A stretch of DNA of 64,000 bases. Source: Candidatus Gottesmanbacteria bacterium. Lineage in GTDB: Bacteria > Patescibacteriota > Microgenomatia > UBA10105 > UBA927. Where the stretch lies: NCBI GenBank assembly GCA_963701185.1, contig OY969569.1, positions 447,054 to 511,053 on the forward strand. The letters run 5' to 3'. Shown here piece by piece: positions 6,656 through 55,490 of the stretch (positions are counted from its first letter, which is position 1; each line of letters begins with the position of its first letter). A program made the translations under genes and the position numbers. Under the pieces are notes generated by a model that ran no database searches, was not told where the DNA came from, and worked only from the letters and a program-made list of their open reading frames with translations.

Positions 6656-7000
6656 TAGCGCATTAATATGCTCCAAATAAACACTTTTGAAGCTAAGGAT
6701 ATACGATTCCGAAGATTCTATCAGATCGGGAAACGTCGCAATTTAGCGCCATATAACACTCCAAAGTGCTAATATTAGCTTCGCGTAAGCACTCCCTGCC
6801 TGCGAGCAGTAATAAAAAGGGCTTTCGGGTTTTTTTAGCACCTCCTAATGCTCCAAACTCGAGGTTTCGAGGCGAGATTCCGGCTTTTTAGCCGGAAGCG
6901 CTATCGGGGATTTAGAGGGTCCTAACAATCCAAACGACCAAAAATACGCACACATTGTGTACTCAAAGAAGCGAGTGCGCCCTCCTTCGTCCCGATCCGA
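6656..7000. repeat. Four tandem degenerate ~88-bp units, each with a conserved 22-nt head (TAGCRCNNNNTAANNCTCCAAA) and a variable hairpin-containing body
   Basis: Heads at 6656, 6744, 6836 and 6913: TAGCGCATTAATATGCTCCAAA / TAGCGCCATATAACACTCCAAA / TAGCACCTCCTAATGCTCCAAA / TAGAGGGTCCTAACAATCCAAA. Bodies contain hairpins such as TTCCGGCT-TTTT-AGCCGGAA. Confidence 0.6.
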
Positions 7001-7066: not shown

Positions 7067-7090
7067 CGTCCCGATCGAATCGGGACTTCG
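7067..7090. repeat. Hairpin CGTCCCGATCGAATCGGGAC (same family)
   Basis: Read directly. Confidence 0.7.
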
Positions 7091-7159: not shown

Positions 7160-8005
7160 TTACCGGCCCCCCCGCCAGGAAGTTGCAATGAACGTAATAA
7201 TAAAAACAATTGCGGCAACGGCAAAAAATTCAATCAGGGTTTTTTTATACAGCTTTTCAACCAGATACTGCTGGGCAGCACCGACACTGCTGTAGAACGC
7301 GGTCGTGAAAAGAAGGGCCAACAGCGTTGTTTTCGTCGGCAAAAAGGAAAATATCCATACAAGCTGGGTTAAAAACACGGCAATGGCAATACTCATGTGC
7401 CACACTCGCCTCCCCAATGTTTCCGAGAGCTCCATAGACCAGACTGATTGCAGTGCAAGAATGAAACTGATTGGTCCGATGATCGCCATCGCGACCGGCG
7501 CAATAAAGCGGAATGCCAATACCGTCTGTACCAGTAAAAAATACGTGAGAAGCGTCAATAAGAAACCGACGGAATGTGCGGCCCGAAGGAGGGCGATGGT
7601 CCGGTCTGCGGCAACCGTATAGATATTTTCAGTCAAAAGAAGAGCATACATGCCGATACCGTACAAAAGCGCAACAGGCAAGCGGGTCAGCCAGCGCACA
7701 GGCAGCAAAAAATAAAAGAGCGCAACGGCTGTCGTAAATAACGTCGGCAACGTGAGAATCGTGAGCCATTCCATACCCCGTATTTCTTTCCGGAACACCA
7801 ATGCGGATAACCCGGCGGCCGCTATGGATAATAAAAAGACCAATGGATACCGCGATTCTCCTGTTACCAGTTGGATGAGCAGTAATCCGACGGTAAGGGC
7901 GCCGGTTGCACCGACAAATTGCTGGCGCTTGGTCAGTGAAAAATGCCGCTCCCGACGGACAAACCATCTCTTCACCGCTTCATTCATTTTTGTCGTCATA
8001 TTCAC
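7160..8005 (-). CDS. polytopic membrane protein, unknown function
   Basis: 281 aa with at least 8 hydrophobic helices. Confidence 0.5.
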   Translation of the reverse strand: MNMTTKMNEAVKRWFVRRERHFSLTKRQQFVGATGALTVGLLLIQLVTGESRYPLVFLLSIAAAGLSALVFRKEIRGMEWLTILTLPTLFTTAVALFYFLLPVRWLTRLPVALLYGIGMYALLLTENIYTVAADRTIALLRAAHSVGFLLTLLTYFLLVQTVLAFRFIAPVAMAIIGPISFILALQSVWSMELSETLGRRVWHMSIAIAVFLTQLVWIFSFLPTKTTLLALLFTTAFYSSVGAAQQYLVEKLYKKTLIEFFAVAAIVFIITFIATSWRGGR

Positions 8006-10612: not shown

Positions 10613-11830
10613 CTATAGCCATTTCCGCTTTAGTTCAAGAAAAGAATTCCTCCTGATACTTTCTCTAATGTCATCTACGAGCCGGTGGATAAAATGAAGA
10701 TTATGAATCGTTGCCAGCCGATATCCCAAAAGTTCTTTGACGTGAAACAGGTGATGGATGTAGGCGCGGGTAAAATGCGTGCATGTGTAGCATGCGCAGC
10801 CCTTCTCAACCGGCCCGAAATCTTCCGCAAAACCCGCTTTCGTAATATCAATAGCCCCCCGCTTTTCATACAACACACCGACTCGGGCCAATCGGGTCGG
10901 CTGGACGCAGTCAAAGGTATCCATACCGTGTTCCACAAGCGTAAAAATATCATCAACCTCCCCCACTCCCAGAAGATGGCGGGGTTTATCCTCCGGCAAA
11001 AGCGGCGTCACCCATGCCAAAACATTTTCCATTTCCTTTTTGCTTTCCCCTACCGATACGCCGCCGATGGCAATTCCGTCAAAATCCATGAAGCTGATTA
11101 CCTTCGCCGACTCCTTCCGCAAATCCTCAAACACGCTCCCTTGAATAGACCCGTACAAAGCGGTCGACGAATTTAACAAAATAGTTTTTTTGTTTTTTAA
11201 TTTTTTGTGTTCTTCCAGACTTCGTTTTGCCCATGCGTGGGTCCGATCCAAAGATTTCCGTGCTTTTTCGTGAGTTACCCCGTACGGCGTGCAGTCGTCA
11301 AACGCGATATGCATATCGCTCCCCAACTCCTCCTGCCACTTCATCGAAGATTCCGGGGTAAATATATGTTTCGTCCCGTCCCAATGGGATTGAAATTCAA
11401 CGCCGTCATCGGTAATTTTTACCATTTTTTTATTGTCATTCCCGACCTGATCGGGAATCCGCGTTTCTCCAAAAACCAATACCGATTCCCGCCTTCGCGG
11501 GAATGACATAGAAGAACGCCCGAGTGAAAAAACCTGGAACCCTCCGCTGTCCGTCATGATCGGCCGGTTCCAGTTCATAAATTTGTGCAAACCGCCGGCT
11601 TTTTTGATAACCTCAATCTCCGGCCGCAGATACATATGATACGTATTGACGAAAAACAGTTGAACACCAATTGTATTCAATTCTTCGGGTGTGAGGCTTT
11701 TGACCGTCGCCTGTGTGCCCACCGGCACAAACGCCGGGGTTTGGATATCGCCATGCGCCGTATGGATTACCCCCACCCGCGCCCGTGTTTTCTTATCTTT
11801 GTGAATCTGTTTGAAGCTAAATTCTCCCAT
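10613..11830 (-). CDS. tgt: queuine tRNA-ribosyltransferase
   Basis: [42 protein letters not shown]...HHLF. Carries an in-frame ~30-aa insert encoded by a palindromic element. Confidence 0.9.
   Translation of the reverse strand: [405 protein letters not shown]
11434..11508. repeat. 75-bp element with terminal inverted repeats TGTCATTCCCG...CGGGAATGACA and two internal hairpins, inserted in-frame in tgt
   Basis: Hairpins ATTCCCGA-CCTG-ATCGGGAAT and GATTCCCGC-CTTC-GCGGGAAT. Encodes the extra segment [31 protein letters not shown]. Confidence 0.75.
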
Positions 11831-14112: not shown

Positions 14113-15843
14113 TTACCCCACCCCGTGTTCTATTTTTAATCTCGATATCTTTCTTGCGACGTCTGCCTCCGCTACACCGAAGGACGGAAGCAGGCGCTCG
14201 ACGATCGCGAGAGCCGCCTCAAACTCCGGCTGGATGACGGCGTCCACCCCCAGGGACTTGAGATATTTCTGGTCCTCCTCGTGATGCGTCCGGCAGATAA
14301 TTTTGATGCGGCGGTTAAGAGTTTGGGCATGGGCAATCACCAACTCCTGCGTATGGCGGTCCGGAATGGCGATAATAATTGCTTTCGCGTAGTCAACCTG
14401 CGCGTAATCCAACACGTTTTTGTCCGCCGGATCGCCGTACACGACCGGAATACCTTTGGCCGTCAGCGCCGCAATGGCCGCATTATTGTAATCAACAACC
14501 ACAAACGGAATCTCTGCCATGGCAAGGGCGCGGCCGATATACTTCCCCACCCTTCCATAGCCGCACAGAACGACGTGGTCCCGGTACGGAAGTTCCTCTT
14601 TGACGTCCGGCTCCTCGCGGGACGTACGGAACACCTTCGGCAGATATTTGTCCATCCATCCGTGCATGCCGTAATACAAACTGTGTCCCTGGGAAATAAA
14701 CGGGGTAGAGACCAGAATCGTAAGAAATGTCAGGGCGATAAGAAACGTATACTGATCCCGGGTCAGGGCGCCCAAGACCCAGCCCTGGCTTGCGATAATA
14801 AAACCGAACTCACTCATTTGGACAAGTCCAACCGCAACAAGAAAAGAGGTTTTCCGGTGATATCCCATGAAACGCATGAGTCCCATGACCACAAACCATT
14901 TGACGGCAAGAATAAAAACGGTGAGAATGGCAAGCGTACCGGCTGCCCGCAGCAGGTATGCCCCCGGTATCCCCATGCCGATCGTGACAAAAAACACCAC
15001 GACAAAGAGATCCCGAAGCGGCCGTACTTCGGCAAAAATCGCATGATTCTCACTTGTTTCAGAAATGAGGAGTCCCGCCACAAACGCACCGAGGGCAGCC
15101 GACAACCCCAACACGTACGTGGTCATTGCGGACAAAAAAACCAGACCCACGGTCACCAGCATAAATATCTCGCGGTTCCCCAGTGTCGCCACTTTCCCCA
15201 GCGCCTTGGGCACAACCTTTTTCCCCAGAAAAATAATAAGAGCAAGCGCGACTGCCGCCTTGAGGAATCCCAAAGAGAGTGACGCGGCTAAACTCATTGC
15301 GCTAATATCCCCGGTATGCGCGGCTCCGATGACGGACGGCAGGATAATCATAATCGGAACGACGGCTAAATCCTGGAGAACCGACCAGCCGGTCATCATT
15401 TCACCCGGCACGGTATCCAGTTCTCCCCGCTCGGACAAAACCTTCACAATAACGGCGGTCGAAGAAAGCGATCCGGCAATAGCAATAACGAGAGACGCCA
15501 GAAACGGGAATCCGAGAAACATGCTAAATAATAAAAACAGGAAGATACACAAAAGGATCTGGGTAATGGCGGCCCACGGCAGAGTCCCCATGAGTTTCTT
15601 CAGCCGGTGAAAGGAAAACTCGACGCCCAGAGTAAAAAGAAGAAGGGTCACGCCGACATCACCGATCCCTTTCAAAAATGCGGCATCGGTGGCACGCGGA
15701 AACAGATTGCCAAAAAGGATCCCCGCGGCAATATATCCCAAAAGCGTGGGTTGTTTAAGCATTTTTGCAATTGCCCCGCCTAAAATCGCGGCGCTAAACA
15801 CAAGAAGCAAGGTAGAGATGAGTGACAGGCTATGTGCGTCCAT
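14113..15843 (-). CDS. monovalent cation:proton antiporter-2 (Kef-type) with C-terminal TrkA-N/RCK domain
   Basis: About 12 TM helices plus VVLCGYGRVGKYIGRAL...VVVDYN, a Rossmann NAD-binding motif. Confidence 0.8.
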   Translation of the reverse strand: MDAHSLSLISTLLLVFSAAILGGAIAKMLKQPTLLGYIAAGILFGNLFPRATDAAFLKGIGDVGVTLLLFTLGVEFSFHRLKKLMGTLPWAAITQILLCIFLFLLFSMFLGFPFLASLVIAIAGSLSSTAVIVKVLSERGELDTVPGEMMTGWSVLQDLAVVPIMIILPSVIGAAHTGDISAMSLAASLSLGFLKAAVALALIIFLGKKVVPKALGKVATLGNREIFMLVTVGLVFLSAMTTYVLGLSAALGAFVAGLLISETSENHAIFAEVRPLRDLFVVVFFVTIGMGIPGAYLLRAAGTLAILTVFILAVKWFVVMGLMRFMGYHRKTSFLVAVGLVQMSEFGFIIASQGWVLGALTRDQYTFLIALTFLTILVSTPFISQGHSLYYGMHGWMDKYLPKVFRTSREEPDVKEELPYRDHVVLCGYGRVGKYIGRALAMAEIPFVVVDYNNAAIAALTAKGIPVVYGDPADKNVLDYAQVDYAKAIIIAIPDRHTQELVIAHAQTLNRRIKIICRTHHEEDQKYLKSLGVDAVIQPEFEAALAIVERLLPSFGVAEADVARKISRLKIEHGVG

Positions 15844-16534
15844 GGATGATCCTATTCATATCATCCGGTATCGGCGCTTCTATTGCAAGCGTTGCCCCGC
15901 TTGCAGGGTTTGTGCACGTAAGCTTCCATGCGTGCAGCATGACGCGCGGCGCCCAAACGCGGTCGTCACGCGCGGTTTTCCGGCCCGCGTAGAGATAATC
16001 CCCGAGAATCGGGTGATTGATATATTTGAGGTGTACGCGGATCTGATGCGTGCGTCCCGACTCCGGATATAACTCAACAAAACTAAAAGCATCGTCCCCC
16101 GTACCCCATGTCTCACGTACCTTGTATTTTGTTATTGACTCTTTTCCTCCCGGCACAATGCCAAACCGCTCCCTATTCCACGGAAGCCGGCCCACGGGCG
16201 CATTAATTTCCCCGGTGTCGGGAACCAATTTTCCGTGCGCGATTGCAAGATACGTTTTATGGATAAGCCTTTCTTTAAACTGCCGCTGAAGCTCGGTAAA
16301 CGCCTCCTGTGTTTTGGCAATTAAAAGTATTCCTGATGTTTCTTTATCAATGCGGTGAACAATACCAGAGCGAATTGCAAAGTCAGATTCCCGCATACGC
16401 GGGAATGACAAACGAGAGTCCGCCCAGTCCTGCACCGTCTCCCCTTTGACCGACTCGGCGCGGTTGACGACTATTCCGGGAGGTTTATTGATGGCGAGCA
16501 TCACGTCATCTTCGAAGAGGATTGGGATATCCAT
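15830..16534 (-). CDS. RluA-family pseudouridine synthase
   Basis: GIVHRIDKETSGILLIAK, TYLAIAHG, GRTHQIRVHL...HPILGD. Carries an in-frame copy of the GATTCCCGC palindromic element. Confidence 0.85.
   Translation of the reverse strand: MDIPILFEDDVMLAINKPPGIVVNRAESVKGETVQDWADSRLSFPRMRESDFAIRSGIVHRIDKETSGILLIAKTQEAFTELQRQFKERLIHKTYLAIAHGKLVPDTGEINAPVGRLPWNRERFGIVPGGKESITKYKVRETWGTGDDAFSFVELYPESGRTHQIRVHLKYINHPILGDYLYAGRKTARDDRVWAPRVMLHAWKLTCTNPASGATLAIEAPIPDDMNRIIHGRT
16386..16418. repeat. GATTCCCGC-ATAC-GCGGGAATGACAAACGAGAG element inside the RluA-family CDS
   Basis: Encodes ...SRLSFPRMRESDFA...; shares the SFPR(R/M)RES peptide with the tgt insert. Confidence 0.75.
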
Positions 16535-45626: not shown

Positions 45627-48094
<2,468 letters not shown>

Positions 48095-55434: not shown

Positions 55435-55449
55435 AATGTGTTTTGAATA

Positions 55450-55490
55450 CCAATACCGATTCCCGCCTGCGCGGGAATGACAAACGAAAG
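55450..55490. repeat. CCAATACCGATTCCCGC-CTGC-GCGGGAATGACAAACGAAAG element filling the rseP-frr intergenic space
   Basis: Read directly; same family as 11476..11508 and 16386..16418. Confidence 0.75.

Follow-up and report, generated by a model that had tools for sequence, protein, structure and literature searches.

The RluA-family pseudouridine synthase gene (rluA) of a Candidatus Gottesmanbacteria bacterium contains a short palindromic repeat that is translated in frame, just upstream of the catalytic motif of the enzyme. The gene lies in a 64,000-nt stretch of contig OY969569.1 (positions 447,054 to 511,053; assembly GCA_963701185.1), which we term the window and whose own numbering is used throughout. 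Judged by its sequence, the repeat belongs to the short hairpins of the REP type and has its relatives in the dRS3/NTS ("CGTC-tagged") group. The interpretation that we favor, with a probability of roughly 0.55, is that it represents an old REP-type insertion in a permissive loop, which is a singlet in this genome, has been kept palindromic at the level of DNA or RNA, and has been shuffled among lineages by recombination.

Members of this repeat group have been described under several names. The dRS3 element of Neisseria is defined by the palindrome ATTCCC-N8-GGGAAT, and NTS is a 28-nt Neisseria consensus, CGTCATTCCCGCGMAVGCGGGAATCYRG, described in 2025 as the single-stranded DNA (ssDNA) target of the small GIY-YIG nuclease SsnA (PMC11893778). 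Ssn-related motifs (SRM) are targets of SsnA as well. Cleavage and binding by SsnA are reported to be governed by the three nucleotides 5' of the palindrome (GTC) and by the C directly after it (PMC11893778); the ssnA gene itself, a single-domain GIY-YIG gene (cd10448), is typically flanked by copies of the repeat. Di Nocera et al. (2013, PMC3733652) classed dRS3 as CGTC-1 in a superfamily of CGTC-tagged REPs with stems of 8-9 bp and loops of 4-5 nt. The Neisseria REPINs, in which two inverted REPs form one long hairpin, have the same 21-mer as their seed (Bertels & Rainey, bioRxiv 10.1101/2021.07.10.451892).

The hairpin and its host gene

The host gene is intact. Its product matched PseudoU_synth_2 in a Pfam profile search, aligned over its full length with the solved structures of RluD, RluA and RluC (E=1e-32 to RluD 1PRZ), and contains the HRxD catalytic motif as HRID, with Asp63; the surrounding motif, GIVHRIDKETSG, is invariant in 60 orthologues. 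A protein 100% identical to the product (P0001) is encoded on a 995-kb NCBI contig, and a protein search assigned the gene to Candidatus Gottesmanbacteria. A first-pass annotation of the window had placed a palindromic element, the 33 bases GATTCCCGCATACGCGGGAATGACAAACGAGAG, at 16386-16418, in frame in an RluA-family gene and just upstream of the catalytic motif, and had likened its peptide, SFPRMRES, to the SFPRRRES of an insert in tgt. Position, open reading frame (ORF), Pfam match and structures confirm the placement, and the two peptides are indeed read in the same frame and orientation. The translation around the hairpin is ...ADSRLSFPRMRESDFAIRSGIVHRIDKETSG... (also given as ...TVQDWADSRLSFPRMRESDFAIRSGIVHRIDKETSG...), in which SFPRMRES ends six residues ahead of GIVHRIDKETSG. 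The features of the gene, of the hairpin and of its sibling copies are as follows.

15830..16534, minus strand: host gene, RluA-family pseudouridine synthase, 234 amino acids, intact (Pfam PF00849, E=2.3e-27; structure alignments)
16331..16366, minus strand: catalytic motif GIVHRIDKETSG with Asp63, separated from the upstream insert by six residues (ORF translation)
16385..16408, minus strand: codons for SFPRMRES, residues 43-50, the translated hairpin (ORF translation, orthologue alignment)
16383..16410, minus strand: 28-nt hairpin unit TGTCATTCCCGCGTATGCGGGAATCTGA (tag GTC, palindrome, trailing C), with four mismatches to NTS
16387..16394: stem arm ATTCCCGC on the plus strand, part of a perfect palindrome that folds as RNA and as DNA
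16395..16398: 4-nt loop, ATAC on the plus strand and GTAT on the gene strand (orthologue comparison)
16399..16406: stem arm GCGGGAAT on the plus strand, the other half of the perfect palindrome
16410..16418, minus strand: flank on the 5' side along the gene strand, CTCTCGTTT, encoding S-R-L (flank comparison)
11432..11512, minus strand: sibling insert within tgt, SMSFPRRRESVLVFGETRIPDQVGNDN, a REPIN-like doublet of inverted hairpins with palindromes at 11485-11504 and 11438-11458 (folding)
55446..55490, minus strand: sibling copy in the intergenic region that separates frr from an rseP-like gene, the longest version at ~45 nt (core match, flank comparison)

The repeat is a 24-base self-complementary unit, and its palindrome proper (16387-16406) consists of a perfect 8-bp stem and a 4-nt loop (ATTCCCGC-ATAC-GCGGGAAT). 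The rluA hairpin folds better than shuffled sequences, both as RNA (z=-3.8) and as DNA (z ~ -4). The core pattern matches the window three times, at 11486, 16388 and 55460, in one orientation, and on the gene strand every copy reads TGTCATTCCCGCG-NNN-GCGGGAATC. Dinucleotide shuffles of the 64 kb yielded a mean of 0.16 matches, and none of 100 reached three.

The two sibling copies indicate the extent of the repeat. The match at 11486 lies in tgt (10613..11830, minus strand, Pfam TGT), where it is translated as SFPRRRES. It belongs to a doublet that folds at -36.9 kcal/mol (z=-4.8) and whose second hairpin is translated in the opposite orientation; this lineage-specific insert is not present in the tgt genes of loci L081 and L084. 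The 5' flank CT(C/T)TCGTTTG is common to the rluA and intergenic copies, and the 3' flank GGTATTGGT to the tgt and intergenic copies. Because the three copies share flanks pairwise, the unit of the local family is ~45 nt, as in the intergenic copy. Within the window the repeat unit measures 24-31 nt, or 80 nt as a doublet; the tgt insert is the one dimer there, and further dimers are found in orthologous rluA loops.

All three window copies, together with five orthologue copies, conform to the dRS3 definition. The 8-bp stem and 4-nt loop fall within the dimensions of the CGTC REPs, and GTC precedes the palindrome, with C right after it, in all copies examined, so that the determinants reported for SsnA are present in each. 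The rluA copy of the window is a singlet and not a REPIN.

An AlphaFold2 model of the rluA product (mean predicted local distance difference test score, pLDDT, 77.6) places residues 43-50 in a non-regular segment between a helix (34-42) and a short helix (51-54), with a pLDDT of 67 in this block versus 89 and 82 in the neighboring blocks. The model is consistent with an insert that occupies a structurally permissive loop of the RluA-family protein.

The gene also contains a second perfect 8-bp palindrome, TGCAAGCG-TTGCCC-CGCTTGCA, at 15884-15905 near its 3' end. It lies ~40 nt upstream of the overlapping start of a Na+/H+ exchanger gene (14113..15843) and may be a chance palindrome or a regulatory hairpin.

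Orthologous loops and the fate of the hairpin

We compared the loop, delimited by TVQDW and RAGIVHRID, in 120 close rluA orthologues. We found that this stretch is hypervariable in length, consistent with a structurally permissive segment. About 45 of the 120 have a 13-residue, hairpin-free loop, VEKTYHIFIENRA, roughly the length found in solved RluD, which in the structure alignment is 5-6 residues shorter than the window product at this point. Approximately 10 carry xxYL-SFPR(R/M/T)RES at the same position; others have unrelated long loops, including the peptides SSSGLTRGS and SSRPPSRDP at the same place. The window gene combines an in-frame repeat and a full set of catalytic motifs; at the corresponding position most close orthologues have a short loop free of the hairpin.

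In no fewer than seven other Gottesmanbacteria orthologues, this hairpin is found at the codon that it occupies in the window, and the sequences flanking it downstream are homologous; in orthologues from distant taxa it was not found. Because the distant taxa are hairpin-free and the Gottesmanbacteria orthologues share the hairpin, the segment is an insertion, yet one that is not private to the window genome. The first-pass annotation had proposed that the element entered two unrelated genes and had asked whether distant orthologues conserve the segment. Their lack of the hairpin leaves the insertion reading standing: compared with the canonical RluA/RluD loop, the rluA segment is inserted sequence, and the tgt copy is lineage-specific. 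What the proposal did not anticipate is that the rluA copy is shared by those seven or more orthologues.

DNA from eight orthologues was then compared. The sequence TG TCA TTC CCG CGN ANG CGG GAA TC is found at the same codon in the window and in loci L081, L084, L208 and L209, and variation among these five genes is confined to the four-base loop and the flanks. In L084, L208 and L209 a second, inverted hairpin ending GGGGATGACA makes up a head-to-head doublet like the tgt insert of the window. The window rluA has the first hairpin only, joined directly to the conserved Asp-Phe. At this codon, locus L210 has another hairpin, TCCTCGGG-CTTGA-CCCGGGGA, with a homologous downstream flank, and locus L005 carries a different, SRM-like doublet (CCCGGC/TCCGGG stem) in the same loop.

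Two other explanations for these loops were rejected. The hairpin is not an assembly artefact, as it recurs in independent NCBI, ENA and Logan assemblies. Nor is the loop a general hairpin hot spot: among 29 loops, only those bearing a REP fold better than shuffles, and most long loops have z near 0. Because most long loops fold no better than shuffles, the loop is hypervariable but is no general trap for hairpins. Many other orthologues contain short tandem or AT-rich repeat peptides in this loop (P0055/P0101, LTINKLTINKL; P0092, CPMSNVQCPMSN; L006 4084-4158; L011 5129-5191). These are a different, slippage-type insert at the same permissive site, and they too fold no better than shuffles.

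All five stem codons are identical in the five hairpin-bearing genes, compared with 23 of 147 (16%) conserved degenerate codons elsewhere (P ~1e-4). Locus L212 carries ATTCCGAC-GCAC-GTCGGAAT, in which both partners of two base pairs have been replaced and the stem remains perfect; through these compensatory changes the peptide has become SFRRTSES instead of SFPRRRES. Since the synonymous sites of the stem are frozen and the compensation in L212 alters the peptide, it is the nucleic-acid hairpin, not the peptide, that is maintained. These comparisons indicate that evolution has preserved the DNA hairpin and not the encoded peptide, with a covariation signal that is modest.

The distribution of the hairpin alleles is patchy. 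On a neighbor-joining tree built with the loop masked (212 columns), hairpin alleles are scattered and the nearest relatives of the window gene are hairpin-free. Over 1.2 kb, the metagenome contigs L206 and L207 share 98-100% identity outside two short patches in rluA, in which identity drops to 63-83%:

L206 481-630 (~150 nt): the loop studied here
L206 1051-1110 (60 nt): a second variable surface region

Since L206 and L207 differ only in these patches, loop alleles move by short-tract recombination, and such recombination explains the scatter of hairpin alleles without repeated insertion. The patches indicate short-tract recombination, or possibly a diversifying exchange, at these loops.

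Taken together, these data suggest the following course of events. Repeats of this group are small DNA palindromes that spread within genomes and function as single strands. One such repeat, probably a head-to-head doublet, would have become fixed in RluA, in the permissive surface loop that joins helix alpha1 to the catalytic strand, in an ancestor common to several Gottesmanbacteria lineages, and in the window genome a single in-frame deletion would have reduced the doublet to one hairpin. SFPRMRES would then be a passenger peptide that leaves the enzyme undisrupted. A nucleic-acid process would keep the stem palindromic, either by conversion or re-templating from sibling copies or by selection on the hairpin itself, and short, long and hairpin-bearing loop alleles would have been shuffled among lineages by short-tract homologous recombination. 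The window copies may likewise be linked to a nuclease of the Ssn type.

Several observations weigh against this interpretation. The hairpin can decay, as the copy in locus L211 has two unpaired positions. The covariation comes from one compensated lineage only, and 22 of 500 shuffles did as well. The nearest relatives of the window gene (P0002-P0007, P0004) are hairpin-free, and its 5' flank is closer to the intergenic copy of the same genome than to the orthologues; both would also fit a fresh insertion. A search of the window and of ~0.55 Mb of related Microgenomates loci revealed neither a GIY-YIG (Ssn-like) gene, sought with a profile hidden Markov model (HMM) and regular expressions, nor a gene for an HUH transposase; in the window, the HUH motif expression matched only a HIT-like protein and unrelated ORFs. 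The assignment to the family is also imperfect. Each copy has 3-4 mismatches to the NTS 28-mer, more than the single extra mismatch that the search criterion of PMC11893778 allows; these fall at position 1 in all copies, at tail positions and, in the rluA copy (positions 1, 14, 16 and 28), at two loop positions. By reading, each copy fails one tail position of the degenerate SRM motif HGTCWYN(0-2)YYVSBRHN(0-5)WNVSBRGN(0-2)RNCYNB, whose sole match in the window is an unrelated site at 47551-47579. The tag is TGTC in every lineage copy examined, with T and not C as its first base. Because of this first base, the 3' tail, the 3-4 mismatches and the SRM motif missed at one position, we treat the element as a relative of NTS and not a strict member.

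We considered whether the loop is instead an insertion hot spot, a preferred site that hairpin families have entered repeatedly and recently, with the window copy a fresh insertion from a sibling in the same genome. The scatter of hairpin alleles and the hairpin-free nearest relatives would be expected under this explanation, as would invariant stems, since the insertions would be young. Three stem types (TTCCCGC; TCCTCGGG in L210; CCCGGC/TCCGGG in L005) occur at the same or nearly the same codon, and the 5' flank in rluA (CTCTCGTTT; CTCTCGTTTG) resembles the intergenic one (CTTTCGTTT; CTTTCGTTTG) and not the TAT/TAC codon of the orthologues, a likeness that is suggestive only. However, the downstream flanks are homologous across hairpin types (GCC TTG GTT AAC in L210, GCC GTC GTT GAC in L081, GCC TTG GAT AAC in L212), which implies one inherited context; the decay seen in L211 implies that the hairpin is old; there is no visible target-site duplication; the scatter is accounted for by the short-tract recombination demonstrated above; and the tree rests on only 212 columns. 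We therefore regard a hot spot as unlikely.

A different possibility is that the hairpin is itself a selected nucleic-acid element embedded in a housekeeping gene, with its stem kept perfect by compensatory evolution. It could serve as the recognition site of a hairpin-specific ssDNA nuclease that limits recombination tracts and mark the boundary of a recombination cassette, or serve as an mRNA structure that stabilizes the upstream lgt-dksA transcript or tunes rluA translation. The frozen synonymous sites of the stem amid a varying loop and flanks, the compensatory double change in L212 at the expense of the peptide, the retention of the Ssn binding and cleavage determinants in every copy, the position of the loop in a recombination breakpoint region and the stability of the RNA hairpin all speak for such a function. 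If it were true, a cassette boundary would explain the exchange of loops between otherwise identical genomes. Against it, most orthologues, including the closest, do without the hairpin, the L211 hairpin has decayed, no nuclease gene was found in the window or the ~0.55 Mb searched, and conversion between copies could equally yield the conservation. We hold this proposal, too, to be doubtful. It is very improbable that the Arg-rich SFPR(R/M)RES loop next to the active site persisted for the sake of better RNA binding by the enzyme. The peptide is basic, lies six residues before the catalytic motif and is common to ~10 orthologues, but it becomes SFRRTSES while the stem is preserved, its central Arg is Met in the window genome, unrelated peptides (SSSGLTRGS, SSRPPSRDP) stand at the same place in other orthologues, the commonest loop is short and has no Arg, and tgt, which has an unrelated fold, holds the same peptide. 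An old insertion whose hairpin is maintained and whose alleles recombine thus remains the reading that we prefer.

Frame, orientation and wider distribution of the repeat

The first-pass annotation had further noted the same orientation and frame in the two genes, and had taken this to suggest that the frame in which the element is tolerated is constrained, to one with no stop codons and a hydrophilic, Arg-rich peptide. By direct reading, a stop interrupts a single one of the six frames through the core, FPxxRE*, and the other five are open. The identical 25-nt core is translated in other frames in verified genes of other organisms: as DSRLRGND in a TatD gene (L086), where the Pfam match spans both sides of the translated core, and in the VIPAKAGIQ frame in genes for UvrB (L190), phage portal proteins (L302, L213) and a methyltransferase (L179). 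Long ORFs through copies on high-GC contigs were set aside as likely spurious; in one of them, L300, the copy lies upstream of the real portal domain. With these other frames in use, and with the second tgt hairpin translated in the opposite orientation, we rejected a constrained frame as a general rule. In UvrB, the core forms a cluster, SSSVIPAPHSVIPAKAGIQASGMDP, located between the N-terminal domains and Helicase_C.

Orientation can be accounted for in another way. GC skew on the plus strand is negative in 15 of the 16 4-kb bins of the window. The leading strand is usually G-rich; the negative plus-strand skew thus indicates that the minus strand is the leading strand and that the window lies within one replichore. 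Every window gene examined is on the minus strand. The tagged strand of all three copies, including the intergenic one, is likewise the minus strand, and this coincides with the sense strand of the neighboring genes. The orientation common to the three copies, the untranslated one among them, fits strand bias and calls for no translational filter; such a bias accounts for it no less well than the filter would, with three copies being too few to prove it.

To survey the core beyond the window, we scanned metagenome and viral collections (at least 120 stretches each) with a pattern of 22 specified bases; the figures in this paragraph hold among the matches listed. Contigs with the core range from 29 to 71% GC in the two collections together. 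Among the metagenome copies GAAA is the most frequent loop, and the consensus of the 3' tail is CAG, as in NTS. The profile HMM mentioned above was built from four small ORFs (Pfam PF01541) adjoining copies. Of 120 metagenome loci, 6 have an Ssn-like GIY-YIG gene no more than 200 nt from a copy; of 120 viral loci, 4 have one immediately next to a copy, and in one of these (L266) the gene has copies on both sides. In the two collections together, 10 of 240 core-holding loci have such a gene near a copy. Because GIY-YIG genes adjoin copies in unrelated contigs, including contigs classed as viral, the published association of Ssn with NTS is reproduced. A scan of genome contigs that began from relatives of rluA found no core hairpin among the ~23 Microgenomates loci listed. 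The GIY-YIG genes lie at the following positions.

Metagenome: L111 1675-2157; L116 188-562; L123 130-417; L112 259-546; L095 1072-1362; L137 2317-2742
Viral: L266 2922-3335; L227 922-1263; L332 8631-8981; L265 3660-3995

These are small single-domain genes (~93 amino acids, PF01541) beside core copies in unrelated metagenome and IMG/VR contigs, and NCBIfam gave no specific name for their products. The genes between paired copies in L124, L143, L157 and L164 include no nucleases or transposases. A dRS3/NTS-type copy, GTCATTCCCGCGCAAGCGGGAATCC, turned up by chance at 15978-15995 of L029, a locus from a Campylobacteraceae metagenome-assembled genome that had been fetched for its rluA homologue. 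The hairpin occurs widely across phyla, as L029 illustrates.

Other small repeats were observed in the course of this work. The tgt gene carries many lineage-specific inserts, of which the two-hairpin doublet of the window (11432-11512, minus strand) is one. In the four tgt genes with which it was compared (L081 17167-18318, L084 12720-13886, L082 14441-15700, L210 5578-6795), those of L082 and L210 have an unrelated insert of ~40 amino acids at the site of the doublet. Other tgt loops bear peptides typical of further translated palindromes or repeats (SRLGSRVKPGMT, SLRAKRSNL..., KFKIKNSKLKIEN), and it looks as though the colonization of enzyme loops by small repeats is general in these genomes. 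The window also contains two GC-rich palindromes, GTCCCGATCGAATCGGGAC and TTCCGGCTTTTTAGCCGGAA, at 7068-7086 and 6878-6897, past the 3' end of an ORF for a membrane protein (7160..8005, minus strand) and in a region for which no long minus-strand ORF is listed; they may be terminators or other small repeats.

Significance and comparison with known repeats

Much of what we describe has precedents. Palindromic repeats in frame in functional genes are known, REPs within genes were catalogued in 2013 (PMC3733652), and the hairpin family was connected with its nuclease in 2025. New here are the host phylum, the high fraction of copies that lie in genes, and an allelic series at one codon that shows maintenance of the hairpin. 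The repeats of the dRS3/NTS type, and their translation inside essential genes, are thereby extended to the Candidate Phyla Radiation (CPR), whose genomes are tiny and offer little intergenic space in which selfish DNA can hide. We found no paper linking REP repeats with Patescibacteria in the literature searched, and no mention of Patescibacteria in the paper on SsnA and NTS (PMC11893778). The rluA loop amounts to a natural experiment, with empty, intact, compensated, decayed and other-type hairpin alleles at one site in related genomes; the series could help to tell selection on DNA or RNA structure apart from gene conversion, and to find out whether Ssn-like nucleases act in CPR bacteria. 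Translated repeats also explain odd peptides (SFPRKRES, VIPAKAGIQ, DSRLRGND) and length variation in CPR protein annotations.

Among known systems, the Neisseria dRS3/NTS/SRM repeats share with the window element the identical palindrome, ATTCCCGC-N4-GCGGGAAT, with GTC before it and C after it. The 24-mer of the intergenic window copy, GTCATTCCCGCGCAGGCGGGAATC, fits the NTS core, and the metagenomic core copies end in CAG and in some cases adjoin Ssn-like genes. The window copies differ in their first base, T, and in a 3' tail of TGA or GGT in place of YRG. Two of the three lie inside genes, whereas 2% of NTS-type copies were reported to do so in N. meningitidis (PMC11893778), and the host here is a CPR bacterium.

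With the CGTC REPs (PMC3733652) the element has in common a stem of 8-9 bp, a loop of 4-5 nt and a short tail, as well as documented intragenic units and no flanking transposase gene. The CGTC REPs occur predominantly as head-to-head dimers; of the window copies, the one in tgt is a dimer. The tag is different, being TGTC in the window copies, and the five phyla in which the 2013 survey found CGTC repeats did not include the CPR.

The Rickettsia RPEs (Ogata et al. 2000, as cited in PMC3733652), along with the coding palindromes of Wolbachia, are likewise in-frame palindromes in housekeeping genes that are still functional, in small genomes; according to the same citation, RPE-1 interrupts the truB pseudouridine synthase gene of R. 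conorii. RPE-1 is described there as a longer palindromic insertion, compared with the 24-31 nt unit or 80 nt doublet found here in another phylum.

Finally, in contrast to the REPINs (bioRxiv 10.1101/2021.07.10.451892), the rluA copy of the window is single. A search of the window for a RAYT (HUH/Y1) transposase gene, the partner of REPINs, did not detect one there. Like REPINs, the insert in tgt and the loops of rluA in L084, L208, L209 and L005 do consist of two inverted hairpins that fold on each other, and long vertical persistence is the behavior described for REPINs.

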